Source: Nitrospirales bacterium
Lineage (GTDB): Bacteria > Nitrospirota > Nitrospiria > Nitrospirales > UBA8639
DNA: 64,000 nucleotides
Assembly (NCBI GenBank): GCA_029261275.1
Contig: JAJDBR010000109.1
Location: 2,627-66,626 of the forward strand
Direction of reading: 5' to 3'
Shown: positions 3,721 to 11,902 of the stretch, piece after piece
Numbering within the stretch: position 1 is the stretch's first letter
Layout of the letters: every line of letters starts with the position of its first letter
The notes under the pieces: model-generated
What the model saw: the letters and a program-made list of their open reading frames with translations, nothing else
Database searches by the model: none
Told to the model about the DNA's origin: nothing
Translations under genes and position numbers: made by a program

Positions 3721-4884
3721 ATGATTGAAGGATTCGGAAAAGAGATTCAAGCAGTCTGGGACATTGGGGTCTTCGGAACGAACCTAGGTGAAATTTTTCA
3801 GGCCATGGGGATCTTTTTCCTCTTTATTCTTGCGAGACGAATATTTTTTCGCACCACCATGAAGTCACTCAAATTGCTCGCAAAAAAAACTGAAACCGAT
3901 GTGGATGATCAGGTCATTGCTGCGCTCGAACATCCGCTTGAATTTGCCTTTGTCGTAATTGGACTCTATTTCGCAGGACAATTTGTCACGTTATCCGACA
4001 CGGCCATTCATCTACTCGCGCAATTGGTACGTTCTCTTATTGCCTTAACCCTCTTCTGGGCAATTTATCGAGTGGTAGATCCGCTCTCATCCCTCTTCGA
4101 CCGAGCCATTGGTCTTTTCGGCAGTGAAAGCATGCACGAAACAGTAAAAGGCTTCTTTGTGAAATTGATCAAGGCCATTATCGTCTGCTTGGGAATCGCC
4201 GCAATTTTTCAGGAATGGGGGTTTAATGTGGCAGCCGTACTGGGAAGCTTAGGGCTGGTAGGCATGGCTGTGGCCCTCGGCGCTCAGGATTTTATTGCCA
4301 ACATGTTTGCAGGGCTTACCATCTTTCTCGATCGTCTATTTGAAAAAGGCAACTGGATCAAATCGCCTGATGTCGAAGGGAATGTGGAAGCGATCGGCTT
4401 TCGAGCCACAAAAATTCGGCGGTTTGATAAAGCGCTCGTCACCATCCCAAATGCCAAACTCGCCAACGAAGCACTCATTAACTATTCTCGCATGACTCAA
4501 CGCCGGATTTATTGGAGCATTGGTGTAGAATACCGAACCACTCAAGATCAACTACGAGCAATCATTCGAGACATTTCTGAGTACCTTCATTCCCATCCGA
4601 ATTTTGAAACCGACCCGAAAAAGACCAAAACGTTTGTCTTTTTAGATACCTTTGGTGCTTCGAGCATTGATATCATGTTGTACTGTTTTACCAAAACGAC
4701 AGTTTGGGGGGAGTGGTTAGCGGTAAAAGAAGCCTTGGCCTATAAGATCAAGGAGATTGTAGAAGGTCACGGAACCGCGTTCGCATTCCCTTCAACATCT
4801 CTCTATGTTGAATCTCTTCCCTTGGGAATCCCAGAAGCCTTTACCCCCCCAAATCCATCGCAACCTCATCTCCCTAATCCCTAG
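3721..4884 (+). CDS. Small-conductance mechanosensitive channel, MscS/YnaI-like
   Basis: Multiple TM helices, GLVGMAVALGAQD, GNVEAIGFRATKIR, IPNAKL, AFAFPS. Confidence 0.93.
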   Translation: MIEGFGKEIQAVWDIGVFGTNLGEIFQAMGIFFLFILARRIFFRTTMKSLKLLAKKTETDVDDQVIAALEHPLEFAFVVIGLYFAGQFVTLSDTAIHLLAQLVRSLIALTLFWAIYRVVDPLSSLFDRAIGLFGSESMHETVKGFFVKLIKAIIVCLGIAAIFQEWGFNVAAVLGSLGLVGMAVALGAQDFIANMFAGLTIFLDRLFEKGNWIKSPDVEGNVEAIGFRATKIRRFDKALVTIPNAKLANEALINYSRMTQRRIYWSIGVEYRTTQDQLRAIIRDISEYLHSHPNFETDPKKTKTFVFLDTFGASSIDIMLYCFTKTTVWGEWLAVKEALAYKIKEIVEGHGTAFAFPSTSLYVESLPLGIPEAFTPPNPSQPHLPNP

Positions 4885-5075: not shown

Positions 5076-6839
5076 TTGCCCATGACCATACGAAAAACTT
5101 TTCGACTCGTCCTCATCAAGCCTTCGCATTATGATGATGATGGCTATGTGATCCAATGGCTACGGTCTTCGATTCCTTCCAACACCTTAGCCGCCCTCTA
5201 TGGCTTAGTTCTCGATTGTGCCAACCGGCACGTTCTGGGAGAAGATGTTGAGTTAGTCGTTGAGCCTTACGATGAAACGAACACGGTGCTGCCCATCAAA
5301 ACAATCATTCAATCCATTAAGGAATCGGGGAATGGACTGGTCGGATTGGTTGGAGTACAAACGAATCAATTTCCTCATGCGGTAGATTTGGCCGATCATT
5401 TCCTCCAGGCCAATATTCCCGTGGCGATTGGTGGGTTTCATATTAGTGGTTGCTTAGCCATGCTGCCTACCTTACCACCTGACATACAGCAAGCCATGGA
5501 CAAGGGGATTACCCTGTATGCAGGAGAAGCCGAAGAACATCTGGACGTATTTCTCCAAGACGCCTATCACCATCGACTCAAACCGCTCTACAACGTGATG
5601 GACCAACTCCCCAGTCTCCAAGAAGCCCCGTCGCCTTTTCTGCCCGCCCACATTATTAACAAGACACTTCGTCGCCTCACGAGTTTTGATGCCGGCCGCG
5701 GCTGCCCATTCCAATGTAGCTTTTGTACGATTATCAATGTGCAAGGTCGAAAATCGCGTTGGCGGTCGGCAGAGGACATTGAAGCCCTCATTCGAGCGAA
5801 TGTACAGCAAGGTATCCGTCGGTTTTTTATTACTGACGATGACTTTGCACGAAATAAGGACTGGGAAGCCATTTTAGATCGCTTCATTGCGATGCGTGAA
5901 AACGAACACCTTCCCATTTCGTTTACGATTCAAGTTGATACACTCTGTCATAAAATTCCAAGATTTATTGAAAAATGCGCCAGAGCAGGATGTCGCAATG
6001 TGTTCATTGGGTTAGAAAACATCAACCCCGACTCGTTGGTTGGTGCAAAAAAGCGTCAGAATAAAATTTGGGAATACCGCAAAATGGCCCAAATGTGGAA
6101 AGACCATGGCTGCACCACCGTCGCCGGCTACATCCTGGGATTTCCTGGCGACACACCAGAAACCATTGCTCGTGATATCGAAATTATCAAAAATGAAATA
6201 CCGTTAGATTGTCTGGAGTTTTTCTGTCTTACGCCACTGCCAGGGTCAGAAGATCATAAGGTACTTGACCAGCAGGGTGTGTTGATGGAGCCAGATATGA
6301 ATTTCTATGATTTAGAACATGTCACAGTCACCCACCCCATTATGTCCAAAGAGATCTGGCAACGAGTCTACCAAACAGCTTGGAGACAATATTACACACC
6401 AGAACATGTGGAAACAGTGATTCGCCGAGCTGCTGCCAAAGGGCAAAATATTAACAAGGTGACCTCTTTGCTCACATGGTTTTATGGCTGCACGACCATT
6501 GAAGGTGTACACCCACTGGAAGGTGGCATCTTTCGCCGCAAAATTCGAGCCTTGCGACGTCCAACCCTTCCACGAGAAAACCCGCTATGGTTTTACCCAA
6601 AGCGGGTTTTTGAAGTATGGCAAACAGGGCTTAAATGGGGACTGTTGGTCTGGAGGTTTCAATCAATTTTAAAACAGGTCAAGGCTGACCCAAACAAAAA
6701 CGCCTATACCGACCTCGCCTTGACTCCCGTTCTCGAACAAGAAGATGAAGACTTCGGACTTATGCAAGTTTTTTCAAGCCACATTCCTGTTTCTCAATTC
6801 ACCCACCCCAGCAAATCCAGCACAGCGTCCGCGTCCTAA
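5076..6839 (+). CDS. Cobalamin-binding-domain radical SAM protein
   Basis: CPFQCSFC (CxxxCxxC), GRGCP, FITDDDF, GLENINP, GYILGFP; N-terminal B12-binding-like region (GVQTNQFPHA...GGFHISG). Confidence 0.88.
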   Translation: MPMTIRKTFRLVLIKPSHYDDDGYVIQWLRSSIPSNTLAALYGLVLDCANRHVLGEDVELVVEPYDETNTVLPIKTIIQSIKESGNGLVGLVGVQTNQFPHAVDLADHFLQANIPVAIGGFHISGCLAMLPTLPPDIQQAMDKGITLYAGEAEEHLDVFLQDAYHHRLKPLYNVMDQLPSLQEAPSPFLPAHIINKTLRRLTSFDAGRGCPFQCSFCTIINVQGRKSRWRSAEDIEALIRANVQQGIRRFFITDDDFARNKDWEAILDRFIAMRENEHLPISFTIQVDTLCHKIPRFIEKCARAGCRNVFIGLENINPDSLVGAKKRQNKIWEYRKMAQMWKDHGCTTVAGYILGFPGDTPETIARDIEIIKNEIPLDCLEFFCLTPLPGSEDHKVLDQQGVLMEPDMNFYDLEHVTVTHPIMSKEIWQRVYQTAWRQYYTPEHVETVIRRAAAKGQNINKVTSLLTWFYGCTTIEGVHPLEGGIFRRKIRALRRPTLPRENPLWFYPKRVFEVWQTGLKWGLLVWRFQSILKQVKADPNKNAYTDLALTPVLEQEDEDFGLMQVFSSHIPVSQFTHPSKSSTASAS

Positions 6840-7707: not shown

Positions 7708-8139
7708 ATGACTGAAGGTACTGCAGGCATGTTTAGTGGGCATAATACTAAGGGGCGTGTGCTCATTGTGGATGATGAGCCGGATGTCCGCAAGGTCATC
7801 AAGATGGCTTTAACCAAGGCCGGCTACGACGTGATTGAAGCCGAAGATGGCGAAAAAGCCATTGCTGCCATCAAAGAAGGCGAGAACCCCCTTCTTTTGG
7901 ATGTCATTATTTCGGACATTCGCATGCCAAAGGTCAATGGAGTAGAAGCCATTAACTATTTCCAACAACAATGGCCTAGTGTTCCATTAATTGTTTTGAC
8001 CGGGTTCCCAGATATGGAAATGGCCACTGGGTTTATCAAAAAAGGCATCGTGGATTATCTTGTCAAACCAGTCGAAAAGGAAAAACTGACTGCGGCCGTG
8101 GCCAAAGCGATTGATCAGAGAGAAATTACTCGTTTGTAA
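7708..8139 (+). CDS. Single-domain response regulator (REC only)
   Basis: IVDDE, ISDIRMP phosphoacceptor, VLTG, VKP; SD AAGGAGG precedes ATG 7708. Confidence 0.93.
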   Translation: MTEGTAGMFSGHNTKGRVLIVDDEPDVRKVIKMALTKAGYDVIEAEDGEKAIAAIKEGENPLLLDVIISDIRMPKVNGVEAINYFQQQWPSVPLIVLTGFPDMEMATGFIKKGIVDYLVKPVEKEKLTAAVAKAIDQREITRL

Positions 8140-8223
8140 CGGGTCTCATTTCCGGTGTTTTTAGCTTGCGCTCAGGGCGCTGTGGGAACAGCACTCAATG
8201 GGGAAAAAGCTCCAAAATTTCCT

Positions 8224-8252
8224 AAAGCCCTATCAAGTTTTGGTAGGGCTTT
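8224..8252 (+). terminator. Intrinsic terminator after REC gene
   Basis: AAAGCCCTATCAA-GTT-TTGGTAGGGCTTT 13-bp stem (one G-U pair) followed by ATACTTTATTT. Confidence 0.7.
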
Positions 8253-8350
8253 ATACTTTATTTGAAATTGAATCCGTTCGATCGGTACACGGGCTTCCCC
8301 CGACCCTGGGTCCAACTCAATGACATTCACCACAATAAGAATAAGGCAAC

Positions 8351-9433
8351 ATGACACATACCCAAGGAGAAACTCCTCTCGTGTCCGAACGGCAAGCTGA
8401 AACCCAACCACGAATCAATGTGGTCATTCTTGGAGCGGGGAAAGGCGGGAGGGCCTTACTGGAATCCTTCCTTAACTTGCCTAGAATTCACCTTATTGGA
8501 GTTGCTGACAAAGATGAAAAGGCACCAGGGCTCAAACTCGCTCGCCGGCATCACATCCCCACCACTCAAGATGCCCTGCCGCTCATTCAACAACCCGACA
8601 TTCACTTAATTGTGGATGTGACAGGTGATCCATCTTTCTCCCAAAACATTTATCGTCATAAACATCCAAACGCAGAAGTGTTGGGAGGAGCTGCCTCCAA
8701 GGTGCTGTGGGACATCATCCAACATGAATCCCTGATGCAAACGCGATTATTCCAAGCTGAAAAATTGGCGGGCATGGGCACCTTTGCATCCGGCATTGCA
8801 CATGACATCAACAATCCGTTGTACATCATTCTGGCCATGGCCGAAGCTATTCAAGATGAAACGGACACCGCTAGCATCCATCAATATGCAACCAGTATCC
8901 GCGACGCCGCGCAACGCATCCAAACCATTTCTCAAAATATCACTCACTATGCCCGCGCGTCGCAGTCGGAAGAGTCCTTTCCGGTTCCCGTCCAGGAAAC
9001 GCTCGATGAAGCCTTAAAAATCGCGAAGTTTGCGACAAAATTCCATGAAATCACCGTGATCCAAAACTATCATGATCATATCACGATCGATTCCAAGCCT
9101 GAGGAACTTCTGCAAGTGTTTGTCAATCTTATGATCAACGCCATCCATGCAATGGAGAACCAAGGCCTCCTGACACTCACGGCAGAAAACCAAAATGGGG
9201 TGGTTCTAGTATCTATTGCCGATACCGGCAAGGGAATTTCTGCCGAACACTTACCAAAAATTTTCGACCCGTTTTTTACCACAAAGGCGCCAGGAAAAGG
9301 CACGGGCTTGGGCTTGTATAATGTCCGTTCCATCGTGCGAAAATATAAAGGAGAGCTCACCGTAGACAGCCAAGTTGGGAAAGGCACCATCTTCTCCATT
9401 GTTTTCCCATCCGTTGACCCCACTCACAAGTGA
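8351..9433 (+). CDS. Cytoplasmic sensor histidine kinase with N-terminal NAD(P)-binding Rossmann-like domain
   Basis: VVILGAGKGG (GxGxxG) and VADKD; H-box AHDINNP; N-box NLMINA; DTGKG, FFTTK, GTGLGL; no TM helix. Confidence 0.92.
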   Translation: MTHTQGETPLVSERQAETQPRINVVILGAGKGGRALLESFLNLPRIHLIGVADKDEKAPGLKLARRHHIPTTQDALPLIQQPDIHLIVDVTGDPSFSQNIYRHKHPNAEVLGGAASKVLWDIIQHESLMQTRLFQAEKLAGMGTFASGIAHDINNPLYIILAMAEAIQDETDTASIHQYATSIRDAAQRIQTISQNITHYARASQSEESFPVPVQETLDEALKIAKFATKFHEITVIQNYHDHITIDSKPEELLQVFVNLMINAIHAMENQGLLTLTAENQNGVVLVSIADTGKGISAEHLPKIFDPFFTTKAPGKGTGLGLYNVRSIVRKYKGELTVDSQVGKGTIFSIVFPSVDPTHK

Positions 9434-9439
9434 TTTCAT

Positions 9440-11902
9440 ATGAATATGGCCACCACCAGTGAAACCCCTATTAAAGGCAAAAGAGGTCTCACGAAAAAAT
9501 TAGTTCTGTCAATGTTACTTGTGGGCACCCTCCCTCTGCTCATTGGGCTCCTCCTCGCTTTTTACCAGGGAACTCAAAGCATTCAGGAAGTGAACGGAGC
9601 AAGCTTTCAGGCTCTGGCGACAGAAACCGCAAGGAAATTGGATTTCGTGGTTAGCGATGAATTGGCTCAGACCAGACTTCTGACTACAAATCCCGACTTG
9701 ATTCAATTGCTAGAAAAACAACGCGATGCCCTAAGTGAAGTCAGCCAAACAGACCTTGCTCTATTGCTTCAAGAAGAACAAAAAACATGGATGGCCAGAA
9801 ACCCCGACCTGGTCCAACGCATTACTCAGGGGCCCATTGTCCAACCGCTTCGAGAACAGGTAGGGGGAACGTTTGTCGATCCATCGCAACCTATCCCTCT
9901 TATCACCCGATCAGCTACACGCGGATTGTACATTACCGATACCGTCGGCCGTCTCATTGCCAGCGTAGACACCAATCCCTCCTATCTGCATGCCCAAGAA
10001 AAATGGTGGAAAGGCGCCTTTCATAATGGAATAGGCCAACCCTATATCGGCAAAATTGGCTTCAATAAAGGCCTCGGGACCTACACGTTCACACTCGCCC
10101 TTCCGATTATGGATAGCTTGCAGTATAAAACCATCGGTGTGCTTCGCCGAATTTATGATGTAAAAGAGTTCTTCTCGCCTTCTATCGACATTATCCGATT
10201 TGGTAAAACAGGGCATGTCATGCTGATTGATAGCCGTGGGGTAGTGTTAACCTGTCCCATTCTCCCTACGGGAGTGTCCTTAAGTGACAATGAACTTATT
10301 CCCCTTGTCACTCCGATGAAAGCCGGGTGGACATCCGCCCAAACCGACGGGCACGGTGGCCAGGAAACCTCTATTATCGGATATGCCCCCCTGCCAAGCA
10401 TCAGTAGCATCACTCAAGATTCGAATGAACTCGCATGGCATATGTTTGTGTGGCAGTCATCAGAAGAATTATTTGGTCCCATTCAAAACTTTTCTAAATG
10501 GATCACGGGCTTCGGTCTCTTAGGGGTAGGGTTACTAGTCACCTTGGGATACCTAGCGGCCCATCGTATTTCCTCACCAATTCGCCGTCTCCAAGAAGCG
10601 ACTCGCCAGATTGGCCGTGGGGAATTTCATGAACCCATCACCATCAACACAGGGGATGAAATCGAAGAGCTGGCCGAGGAAATTAATCGCATGAAAGAGC
10701 AAATAGAATCAACCGTGACCGGCCTGGAAAGTCAAGTCGAAACAAAATCTCAGGAGGTCAAATACCTCCAAGAATCCACGTCAAAAATTTTAGATGGGGT
10801 GCCTGATCCCGTGATCATGATCGACGCTCAGAAACAGATTGAATACCTTAATCAAGCAACAAGAGAGATGTTGAACTTCAATAATGGCCAAGTGATAGGG
10901 ACTCCATTATTTCAATTGCTTCGGGTGGATCCAACAACACAGAAACGATTACACGATGAAATTCAAAACGTTCAAGCAACGCTTTTGACCACCTCTTCCT
11001 TCCCCAGTCATATTCCGACATCCATCCGTGACCCTTTGGTAGCCACTCACCTGGAGGACTCCCATAGTGATCGTCAAGAACTTCGCCTGAACAATCGGAT
11101 CTATCGGTACCGATGGTTTGCCGTACAAACTGCACCTGATAAAGAGCCATCTGCGGGACTTGTCCTACGAGATTTGACGGAAGAAAGCCTGCTGCAGGAC
11201 AAAATCATTCAGGGGGAAAAAATAGCAAGCCTGGGAGTTCTCAGTGCCGGAATCGGGCATGAACTGAATAACCCGTTGGTCGGGGTTATTGGCTTGGGTG
11301 AAGCCATTCAGGACGAGGCCGAATCCGAAAAAATCAAGGAATACGCGAAAGGCATTATCCAACATGGAAAACGGATGGCATCAGTAGTTCGGGACTTTAC
11401 GGGTCAGATGACCACCCAATTTTTGGATACACAAACTCGCGTCAATATCAATGAGCAATTAGAAAAGGTCCTGTCTGCCACAACAGTCCTATTCACATCC
11501 AGTCATATCACTGTCAATACTCAGTTTGAACCGTTGCCCCCTGTGCAAGCCCAACCTAATGAACTGGGGCAAGCTTTCACCAACATTATCAACAATAGCT
11601 TGCAAGCCATGGAGGAAGGTGGAATGTTGGAAGTCAGCACCGGAATCAAGGACCACGCAATACAGATCGTCATTAAAGACTCAGGAACTGGAATTACCCC
11701 CTCACACTTATCCAAAGTCTTTGATCCTTTTTTCACGACTAAAAGCCAGGGAGAGGGAGCTGGACTGGGCTTAACCATTGCCCATCGCCTGATCACCAAA
11801 GTAGGCGGACAGATGCGTCTGGAAAGTGAAAAGAACCAAGGAACGACTTGTCATATTATTTTCCCTCTTCCATCACCCCAACCTGACACCAAAAAGGAAT
11901 AA
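9440..11902 (+). CDS. Membrane sensor histidine kinase: dCache-like periplasmic domain, HAMP, PAS, HisKA, HATPase
   Basis: Two TM helices, HAMP (ISSPIRRLQ...GDEIEELA), PAS (LDGVPDPVIMID), GHELNNP, FFTTK, GAGLGL. Confidence 0.93.
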   Translation: MNMATTSETPIKGKRGLTKKLVLSMLLVGTLPLLIGLLLAFYQGTQSIQEVNGASFQALATETARKLDFVVSDELAQTRLLTTNPDLIQLLEKQRDALSEVSQTDLALLLQEEQKTWMARNPDLVQRITQGPIVQPLREQVGGTFVDPSQPIPLITRSATRGLYITDTVGRLIASVDTNPSYLHAQEKWWKGAFHNGIGQPYIGKIGFNKGLGTYTFTLALPIMDSLQYKTIGVLRRIYDVKEFFSPSIDIIRFGKTGHVMLIDSRGVVLTCPILPTGVSLSDNELIPLVTPMKAGWTSAQTDGHGGQETSIIGYAPLPSISSITQDSNELAWHMFVWQSSEELFGPIQNFSKWITGFGLLGVGLLVTLGYLAAHRISSPIRRLQEATRQIGRGEFHEPITINTGDEIEELAEEINRMKEQIESTVTGLESQVETKSQEVKYLQESTSKILDGVPDPVIMIDAQKQIEYLNQATREMLNFNNGQVIGTPLFQLLRVDPTTQKRLHDEIQNVQATLLTTSSFPSHIPTSIRDPLVATHLEDSHSDRQELRLNNRIYRYRWFAVQTAPDKEPSAGLVLRDLTEESLLQDKIIQGEKIASLGVLSAGIGHELNNPLVGVIGLGEAIQDEAESEKIKEYAKGIIQHGKRMASVVRDFTGQMTTQFLDTQTRVNINEQLEKVLSATTVLFTSSHITVNTQFEPLPPVQAQPNELGQAFTNIINNSLQAMEEGGMLEVSTGIKDHAIQIVIKDSGTGITPSHLSKVFDPFFTTKSQGEGAGLGLTIAHRLITKVGGQMRLESEKNQGTTCHIIFPLPSPQPDTKKE

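Follow-up and report, generated by a model that had tools for sequence, protein, structure and literature searches.

Within a 64,000-nucleotide stretch of the genome of a Nitrospirales bacterium (assembly GCA_029261275.1, contig JAJDBR010000109.1; hereafter the window), we analyzed the gene for a histidine kinase, P0001. P0001 is a sensor kinase, and its input domain is of an undescribed type. This domain is predicted to adopt a Rossmann-type fold and to be joined to the kinase core by one continuous helix. As judged by sequence comparison, P0001 is no oddity: it belongs to a large family of proteins, apparently without a name, that share a mobile input domain. An initial annotation of the window had held that this sensor was not a characterized type, and this has been borne out so far: a search limited to open-access full text found no account of kinases, chemoreceptors or sigma-54 activators that carry a Rossmann or NAD input domain.

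A predicted class I histidine kinase with a single input domain

The gene and its parts are as follows, in coordinates of the window.

8351..9433, + strand: soluble histidine kinase P0001, 360 aa, with a Rossmann-type input domain, a signaling helix, a DHp domain and a catalytic (CA) domain
8411..8686, + strand: Rossmann-type input domain, residues 21-112, five beta-alpha units
8432-8449, + strand: glycine loop GAGKGG, residues 28-33
8507-8509, + strand: Asp53 of the input domain, within GVAD
8621-8632, + strand: TGDP turn, residues 91-94, within IVDVTGDP (87-94)
8687..8800, + strand: signaling helix, residues 113-150, containing Trp120 and continuous with DHp helix 1
8801..8965, + strand: DHp (HisKA) domain, with the phospho-acceptor His151 at 8801-8803 in the H-box HDINNPL
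8966..9415, + strand: HATPase_c (catalytic, ATP-binding) domain with N, G1, F and G2 boxes

The assignment of this open reading frame to a histidine kinase, already proposed in the initial annotation, was confirmed with Pfam, which recognized HisKA at residues 143-204 (E 1.8e-12) and HATPase_c at residues 250-354 (E 2e-24). The NCBIfam match, to an AtoS/ZraS-like model, covers only the kinase core from residue ~119 on. The same annotation had stated that P0001 carries no transmembrane (TM), PAS or GAF domain, and this also held: neither PAS, GAF nor HAMP was found with Pfam, and no TM segment was detected, the highest-scoring 19-residue Kyte-Doolittle window reaching 1.01. Membrane sensing by P0001 was ruled out, given that it has no hydrophobic segment. 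Sensing through thiols or Fe-S clusters was likewise ruled out, because the protein contains no cysteine (0 in 360 residues).

Close orthologues of P0001 are plentiful, with identities of 50-93%, and those with names come from Nitrospirales. In public databases they go by no more than “ATP-binding protein” or “signal transduction histidine kinase”. The phospho-acceptor H151 of the HDINNPL motif is invariant in 38 of 38 orthologues, as are the N, G1, F and G2 box residues N259, N263, D291, G293, G295, F305, F309 and G317-G321. With its H-box and all four ATP-binding boxes kept, P0001 is predicted to be an intact kinase of class I (HisKA type).

The input domain is predicted to be a Rossmann fold

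In a full-length AlphaFold2 (AF2) model, residues 21-120 have a block-mean predicted local distance difference test score (pLDDT) of 84-94, and five beta-alpha units are seen; residues 1-20 have low pLDDT and are poorly conserved. Because a structural search with the full-length model returned kinases, residues 1-137 were folded alone, using an alignment of 78 rows. The resulting N-domain model has a pLDDT of 88.7, with values per 10-residue block of 92-98 across residues 21-110, and displays a five-stranded Rossmann fold.

Using Foldseek, the top match of the N-domain model was the acylating acetaldehyde dehydrogenase DmpF (1nvm; E 1.2e-5, root-mean-square deviation (rmsd) 2.3 A over 97 columns). 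It was followed by GenD2, 4lrt, PheF and HsaG, and then by homoserine dehydrogenases, DapB and biliverdin reductase. An independent comparison with representative structures by VIA-align matched a myo-inositol dehydrogenase (Z 12.0), the N-domain of a saccharopine dehydrogenase (11.2) and HsaG (11.1). Rex was absent from the top structural matches listed by either program. A domain-only profile, built from 34 short family members, detected four acylating acetaldehyde dehydrogenases (E 2.5e-6 to 5.5e-6), Rex (5zz5, E 1.5e-4; 3wg9, E 4e-3), and Gfo/Idh/MocA and TrkA (E about 4e-3 for both). Of the 38 orthologues, 26 match GFO_IDH_MocA at E <= 0.01; DapB_N and NAD_binding_3 are each matched by six. 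The ESM Atlas also led to these Rossmann families, though weakly (0.75-0.81).

Among the 38 orthologues, the N-terminal invariants are G28, G30, G32, G33, G50 and T91. For family-wide conservation, 88 cluster representatives of at least 250 aa each were used. Across these, the glycine loop is retained almost throughout (G28 100%, G30 98%, K/R31 81%, G32 93%, G33 97%), D53 is kept in 94%, and T91 and G92 in 93% each; an A58-P59-G60 motif (94%, 84% and 90%) and A64 (99%) are also prominent. In the N-domain model, D53 directly follows strand 2 (residues 46-52), 20 residues past G33. As modeled, the conserved positions lie just past strands 1, 2 and 4, where the glycine loop, the acidic residue and the turn, respectively, together make up a classical cofactor crevice.

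Taken as a model-based assignment, the input domain is a Rossmann fold of the GxGxxG/Asp type, well above chance. Most of what the initial annotation had read from the sequence was therefore upheld. The motifs it quoted, GAGKGG, GVAD with D53 and IVDVTGDP, are all present in the P0001 translation; the Rossmann fold emerged from the AF2 model, Foldseek, VIA-align and the profiles alike, with GxGxxG and an acidic residue after beta-2; the structure prediction it had proposed as a check yielded the confident model described above; and this domain is the sole input of an intact HisKA kinase. Its description of the domain as Gfo/Idh/MocA- or Rex-like was right in part: both families are detectable by profile and Rex serves as a functional analogy, but dehydrogenases of the DmpF type are nearer in both profile and fold.

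A helix of fixed length connects the input domain to the kinase

The full-length AF2 model contains a single helix, residues 113-169, that leaves the Rossmann domain and runs into DHp. The connector, described initially as a short helix, is in fact 38 residues long (113-150) and continuous with DHp helix 1. It is always 38 residues long in the 38 orthologues, which have no insertions or deletions anywhere between residues 21 and 205. Measured as the mean frequency of the top residue in these orthologues, conservation is highest in the helix (0.83), followed by DHp (0.72), CA (0.68) and the Rossmann core (0.66). W120 on this exit helix is present in 91% of the 88 family representatives. Such fixed length and high conservation are as expected for a signaling helix of fixed register, a role that we assign to it from the sequence alignments.

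The module is a widespread, mobile input domain

To place P0001 in a wider context, residues 1-137 were compared by phmmer with 1.84 billion cluster representatives. The search returned 884 representative clusters (50% identity) at E <= 1e-3, including 238 at E <= 1e-10. The match lies nearly always at the N-terminus of the host protein, which ranges from 100 to more than 1100 residues. In a domain scan of the 88 representatives, the module was accompanied by HisKA in 45, PAS in ~40, GAF in 18, Response_reg in 16, GGDEF in 12, MCPsignal in 8 and Sigma54_activat in 7. Standing N-terminal to such varied outputs, the module appears from its sequence context to behave as a ligand-binding input domain. 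Apparent tandem copies of the module were observed ahead of PAS-kinase cores, with two stretches in P0134 and three in each of P0124 and P0136.

Relatives were also scanned for in one genome per species. The module was found in Methylomirabilota, Nitrospirota, Elusimicrobia, Acidobacteria, Planctomycetota and Omnitrophota, as well as in Calditrichota, Nitrospinota, Desulfovibrionales and Bacillota, where the matches include cultured Bacillus, Sporosarcina, Psychrobacillus and Virgibacillus.

One of the Bacillota members is a relative known from genetics. In Bacillus nakamurai, a 689-aa activator (L091:2495-4564) starts with the module, which is followed by two PAS domains, an AAA+ domain of the sigma-54 type and a helix-turn-helix. 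Its first 105 residues match the P0001 domain with 34% identity over 104 positions (E 5e-22), and GAGKGG, the Asp and TTGD are retained. The gene has prpD-prpB upstream and ptb downstream. We assigned it to the bkdR locus by this gene order rather than from a named record. BkdR is the SigL (sigma-54)-dependent activator of the isoleucine and valine degradation operon of Bacillus (Debarbouille et al. 1999, cited in PMC4428206), and where PMC4428206 gives its domains, these are PAS/PAC alone, the N-terminal module going unmentioned there. The activator of the BkdR locus thus has the same N-terminal module as P0001 and differs in its output, an AAA+ sigma-54 activator reached via two PAS domains. 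As far as we have found, BkdR is the sole family member with genetics behind it. If the module binds a cofactor, it would offer a testable signal for BkdR, a protein that is genetically known and mechanistically unexplained.

NAD(H) is the best guess for the ligand

By textbook rules, NAD and FAD binding is marked by a glycine-rich GxGxxG loop and by an acidic residue that follows strand 2, and Rex provides a precedent for a Rossmann domain that works as an NADH/NAD+ sensor. On the basis of these sequence features, we hypothesized that P0001 is a Rossmann-sensor kinase that binds an adenine dinucleotide, most likely NAD+/NADH, and is coupled to it by the helix. We consider the chances of this reading to be evenly balanced. 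NAD(H) is our best guess for the ligand, with coenzyme A (CoA) as its main rival.

Several observations weigh against NAD(H) sensing. The fold alone specifies no ligand, given that the KTN/RCK, Mur-ligase and formyltransferase N-domains score Z 9.4-10.6 in VIA-align. The Pfam GFO_IDH_MocA match on residues 22-88 of P0001 (E 3e-4, 21.9 bits) falls below the cut-off of 24. The input domain has five strands where the classical Rossmann fold has six, and the odd Lys/Arg in the glycine loop (81%) and the APG motif have no explanation. In the profile alignment, Asp53 is set two residues ahead of the Asp in the “GID” motif of the dehydrogenases, so that its putative ribose-binding role depends solely on the secondary structure of the model. 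Binding or activity data were found for no member of the module family. Finally, the closest enzymes have been reported to bind more than one cofactor: the Rossmann site of acylating acetaldehyde dehydrogenase is described as common to NAD+ and CoA (Lei et al. 2008, as cited in PMC4762007).

The last of these points leads to the strongest alternative, in which the architecture and the helix coupling are the same and the ligand is another one, namely CoA or acyl-CoA, ATP/ADP/AMP, FAD or NADP(H). We regard this as possible, if on the unlikely side. CoA or acyl-CoA is the serious contender here, because the nearest relatives of the domain by profile and Foldseek, the acylating acetaldehyde dehydrogenases, are reported to bind both NAD+ and CoA, and because the context of the BkdR-locus activator, which adjoins the gene for the acyl-CoA-handling enzyme Ptb, is rich in CoA. 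One sigma-54 member additionally shows a weak Pfam CoA_binding match (E 2.5e-4). For the nucleotides, KTN domains with AMP or NAD bound score Z 9.4-10.2 in VIA-align, but the data give ATP no preference over a dinucleotide. NADP is disfavored by the third Gly of GxGxxG and the acidic residue after strand 2, a textbook pattern that speaks against a 2'-phosphate.

Alternatively, the domain could be Rossmann-like without binding any ligand, serving as a module for dimerization or for docking, for example of the receiver or of the dCache kinase encoded next to P0001 (see below), in which case the kinase would be regulated by its partner. The domain is indeed cut down to five strands and has no substrate domain; a receiver-Rossmann chimera brings the module into contact with the alpha4-beta5-alpha5 face of the receiver; and in every kinase-type locus compared, the Rossmann kinase has a second kinase, rich in sensor domains, at its side. 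Yet what is kept across phyla and across unrelated outputs (histidine kinases, sigma-54 activators, MCP and GGDEF proteins) is the glycine loop, Asp53 and the turn with T91 and G92, and one would hardly expect these residues of a cofactor crevice to persist in a pure interface whose partners change. We therefore consider a ligand-free role improbable.

A degenerate receiver (pseudo-REC) at the N-terminus, like that of the REC-HK hybrid LvrB, is the least credible proposal and very improbable: it was suggested by LvrB itself (8vc9), a REC-DHp-CA protein that ranked first when Foldseek was run with the full-length model, but this match is driven by the kinase core with an overall rmsd of 21 A, the matches listed by Foldseek and VIA-align for the N-domain folded and searched alone are Rossmann-type folds, mostly NAD(P) enzymes besides KTN, Mur-ligase and formyltransferase N-domains, with no receiver among them, the profiles match dehydrogenases and Rex with no Response_reg match on residues 1-137, and a GxGxxG loop is foreign to REC. 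A receiver-like N-domain was disfavored on these results for the separate domain, although absence from a list of matches is no proof of another fold.

Proposed mechanism of NAD(H) sensing

Under the NAD(H)-sensing reading, P0001 would be a cytoplasmic, dimeric class I kinase whose input domain derives from the NAD+/CoA-binding half of a dehydrogenase. An adenine dinucleotide, NAD+/NADH being the likeliest, would enter a crevice that the GAGKGG loop, Asp53 and the TGDP turn make up between them. Its occupancy, or its oxidized or reduced state, would then move the helix 113-150, with Trp120, where it leaves strand 5. Because this exit helix runs unbroken into DHp helix 1, the shift could alter the balance between autophosphorylation of His151 and phosphatase activity. 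The phosphoryl group would pass to the adjoining stand-alone receiver (7708-8139), on which the co-transcribed dCache kinase, together with its heme c partner in the periplasm, probably acts as well. In this way, the cassette would merge two signals, one from a cofactor inside the cell and one from the periplasm. Which ligand binds, in which direction it regulates the kinase and that both kinases share the receiver are all parts that we infer.

Comparison with known systems

The nearest solved relatives of the module are the acylating acetaldehyde dehydrogenases (DmpF 1nvm, HsaG 4jn6, 4lrs/4lrt, PheF 7z3s and the AmnH partner 8ih7). They have three motifs in common with it, namely the GxGxxG loop, “(A/S)xGLxxA” following strand 2 and “D(V/A)T(G/S)” following strand 4. 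P0001 differs in lacking the dimerization/catalytic domain and the cysteine, and is thus not an enzyme of that type; its module has five strands only, and the last helix is instead the output helix, fused to the kinase. Classification as a DmpF/MhpF-type enzyme was rejected on the grounds that there is no catalytic cysteine and that the alignment is limited to the first ~100 residues of the enzymes. Membership of Gfo/Idh/MocA was rejected as well: the score is under the PF01408 cut-off, and residue 112 is followed by the helix and kinase, where that family has its C-terminal substrate/oligomerization domain.

The closest functional analogy, drawn by comparison, is Rex, in which, as proposed for P0001, a Rossmann domain has no task but to sense a cofactor and act on a regulatory output. 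Rex differs in being a repressor that binds DNA through a winged-helix domain and has a domain-swapped C-terminal helix, whereas the output of P0001 is DHp-CA, reached via the continuous helix. P0001 was not placed in the Rex family, as it has no winged helix (the Rossmann domain starts at residue 21) and only residues 82-148 of Rex align.

The KTN/RCK (TrkA_N) domains of K+ transporters and channels are Rossmann ligand sensors, for NAD, ATP or AMP, that gate another module. In fold, KTN domains score Z 9.4-10.2 against the N-domain (Kef CTD 5nc8, TrkA 4g65, Mja218 1lss), and many other Rossmann folds score equally; the profile match is weak (E about 4e-3 over ~30 residues only). KTN/RCK domains probably form another sequence family, assemble as rings or dimer hinges and are not tied to two-component signaling. 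Finally, the PAS- or GAF-linked cytoplasmic kinases (for example the engineered LOV-FixL 4gcz and the NtrB/AtoS type) are likewise soluble and couple a ligand domain to DHp by a continuous helix of fixed register, but in P0001 the sensor is a Rossmann fold.

Two-component systems are known to sense redox and energy state via quinones, heme, flavin-PAS domains, Fe-S clusters and thiols. To our knowledge, the pyridine-nucleotide or CoA pool is read directly by Rex-type factors and KTN domains, and we know of no such reading by kinases, chemoreceptors or cyclic di-GMP (c-di-GMP) enzymes. We propose that the ~100-residue module is a general, unnamed cytoplasmic sensor of NAD(H), or of NAD and CoA, that feeds the state of the redox or acyl-carrier cofactor pool directly into two-component kinases, sigma-54 activators including BkdR, chemoreceptor-type proteins and c-di-GMP cyclases in many phyla; we hold this broader proposal tentatively, at somewhat less than an even chance. 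Should the module bind such a cofactor, it would constitute a new and widespread class of cytoplasmic input (884 clusters, more than 10 phyla), and this could explain the control of proteins that are annotated just as “ATP-binding protein” or “histidine kinase”. P0001 would then be the first known two-component kinase to read NADH/NAD+ via a Rossmann domain and, in the nitrite-oxidizing Nitrospirales, would work beside a periplasmic heme-linked kinase on one receiver.

A conserved cassette surrounds the kinase in Nitrospirales

The genes and elements around P0001 are listed below.

3721-4884, + strand: MscS-type channel, upstream of the cassette
5076-6839, + strand: B12-binding-type radical SAM protein (HpnJ-like, E 6e-21, far under the model cut-off)
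7708..8139, + strand: stand-alone receiver (CheY-like), 143 aa (Response_reg, E 2.7e-29)
8223..8253, + strand: terminator-like hairpin, 14-pair stem and T-rich tail, between the receiver and kinase genes
9440..11902, + strand: second kinase, dCache-HAMP-PAS-HisKA-HATPase_c, 820 aa, two TM segments, 6 bp past P0001
11909..12511, + strand: exported Tll0287-like protein, 200 aa, with one CVTCH heme c motif (PF11845, E 3.4e-18)

The receiver starts at ATG 7708, preceded by AAGGAGG, and possesses all of the expected receiver residues (DD, D, T and K). From its sequence and position, it is the likely phosphoryl acceptor of P0001. The gap of 211 bp between the receiver and the kinase gene contains the hairpin at 8223-8253, which alone stands out among the sites of the promoter and terminator scan; it is a pattern match only, in a region whose total of such sites is not above that of shuffled controls. 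We note that, with this hairpin between them, the receiver may be transcribed apart from the kinase operon.

The Tll0287-like protein has a hydrophobic, signal-like N-terminal segment and is probably a periplasmic co-sensor of redox state or gas. Its gene begins 6 bp past the dCache kinase, to which it appears to be translationally coupled.

To assess the conservation of this arrangement, we compared ten loci in further genomes belonging to the same order or class. Eight of the ten, from five genera, contain a kinase-type orthologue. The order receiver, Rossmann kinase, dCache kinase is kept in all eight of these kinase-type loci, and the Tll0287-like heme protein lies downstream in seven. The receiver (56-69% identity across loci) is better conserved than the kinase (44-50%). 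The radical SAM and MscS genes are probably unrelated to the cassette, because they were not found in the orthologous loci searched.

A second paralogue and a receiver chimera

The source genome encodes two copies of the module. The second is on another contig, C93.

L002:1408-2553, + strand: second Rossmann-only kinase, 381 aa, HisKA_3 class

This kinase gene is followed by a regulator of the NarL type (REC and GerE), with glyA (serine hydroxymethyltransferase) and nrdR upstream. In a phylum sample of 150 other genomes, the module was present in 25 of 25 genomes from two sampled families of Nitrospirales, mostly in two copies, and in 8 of the 125 genomes sampled elsewhere in the phylum. If the module binds a cofactor, the finding of both paralogous Rossmann kinases in nearly every sampled Nitrospirales genome would point to a core regulatory input of these nitrite oxidizers.

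The other two of the ten loci belong to a sister genus with genomes of 2.1-2.6 Mb, where a single open reading frame takes the place of the cassette.

L008:7710-8555 (G128:C1), and also L012:7845-8639 (- strand): receiver-Rossmann chimera P0273, ~265 aa

Neither a dCache kinase nor a Tll0287 gene was found near the chimera at the sister-genus loci. The best-matching open frames, from five genomes of the genus, are 275-316 aa long. In the chimera, receiver strand 4 (“LIALTG”) and strand 5 (“DFLIKP”) are separated by an insert that consists of the Rossmann module with the exit helix, as far as “SEKLAGM”, and takes the place of receiver helix alpha4. This fusion supports a functional link between the module and the receiver.

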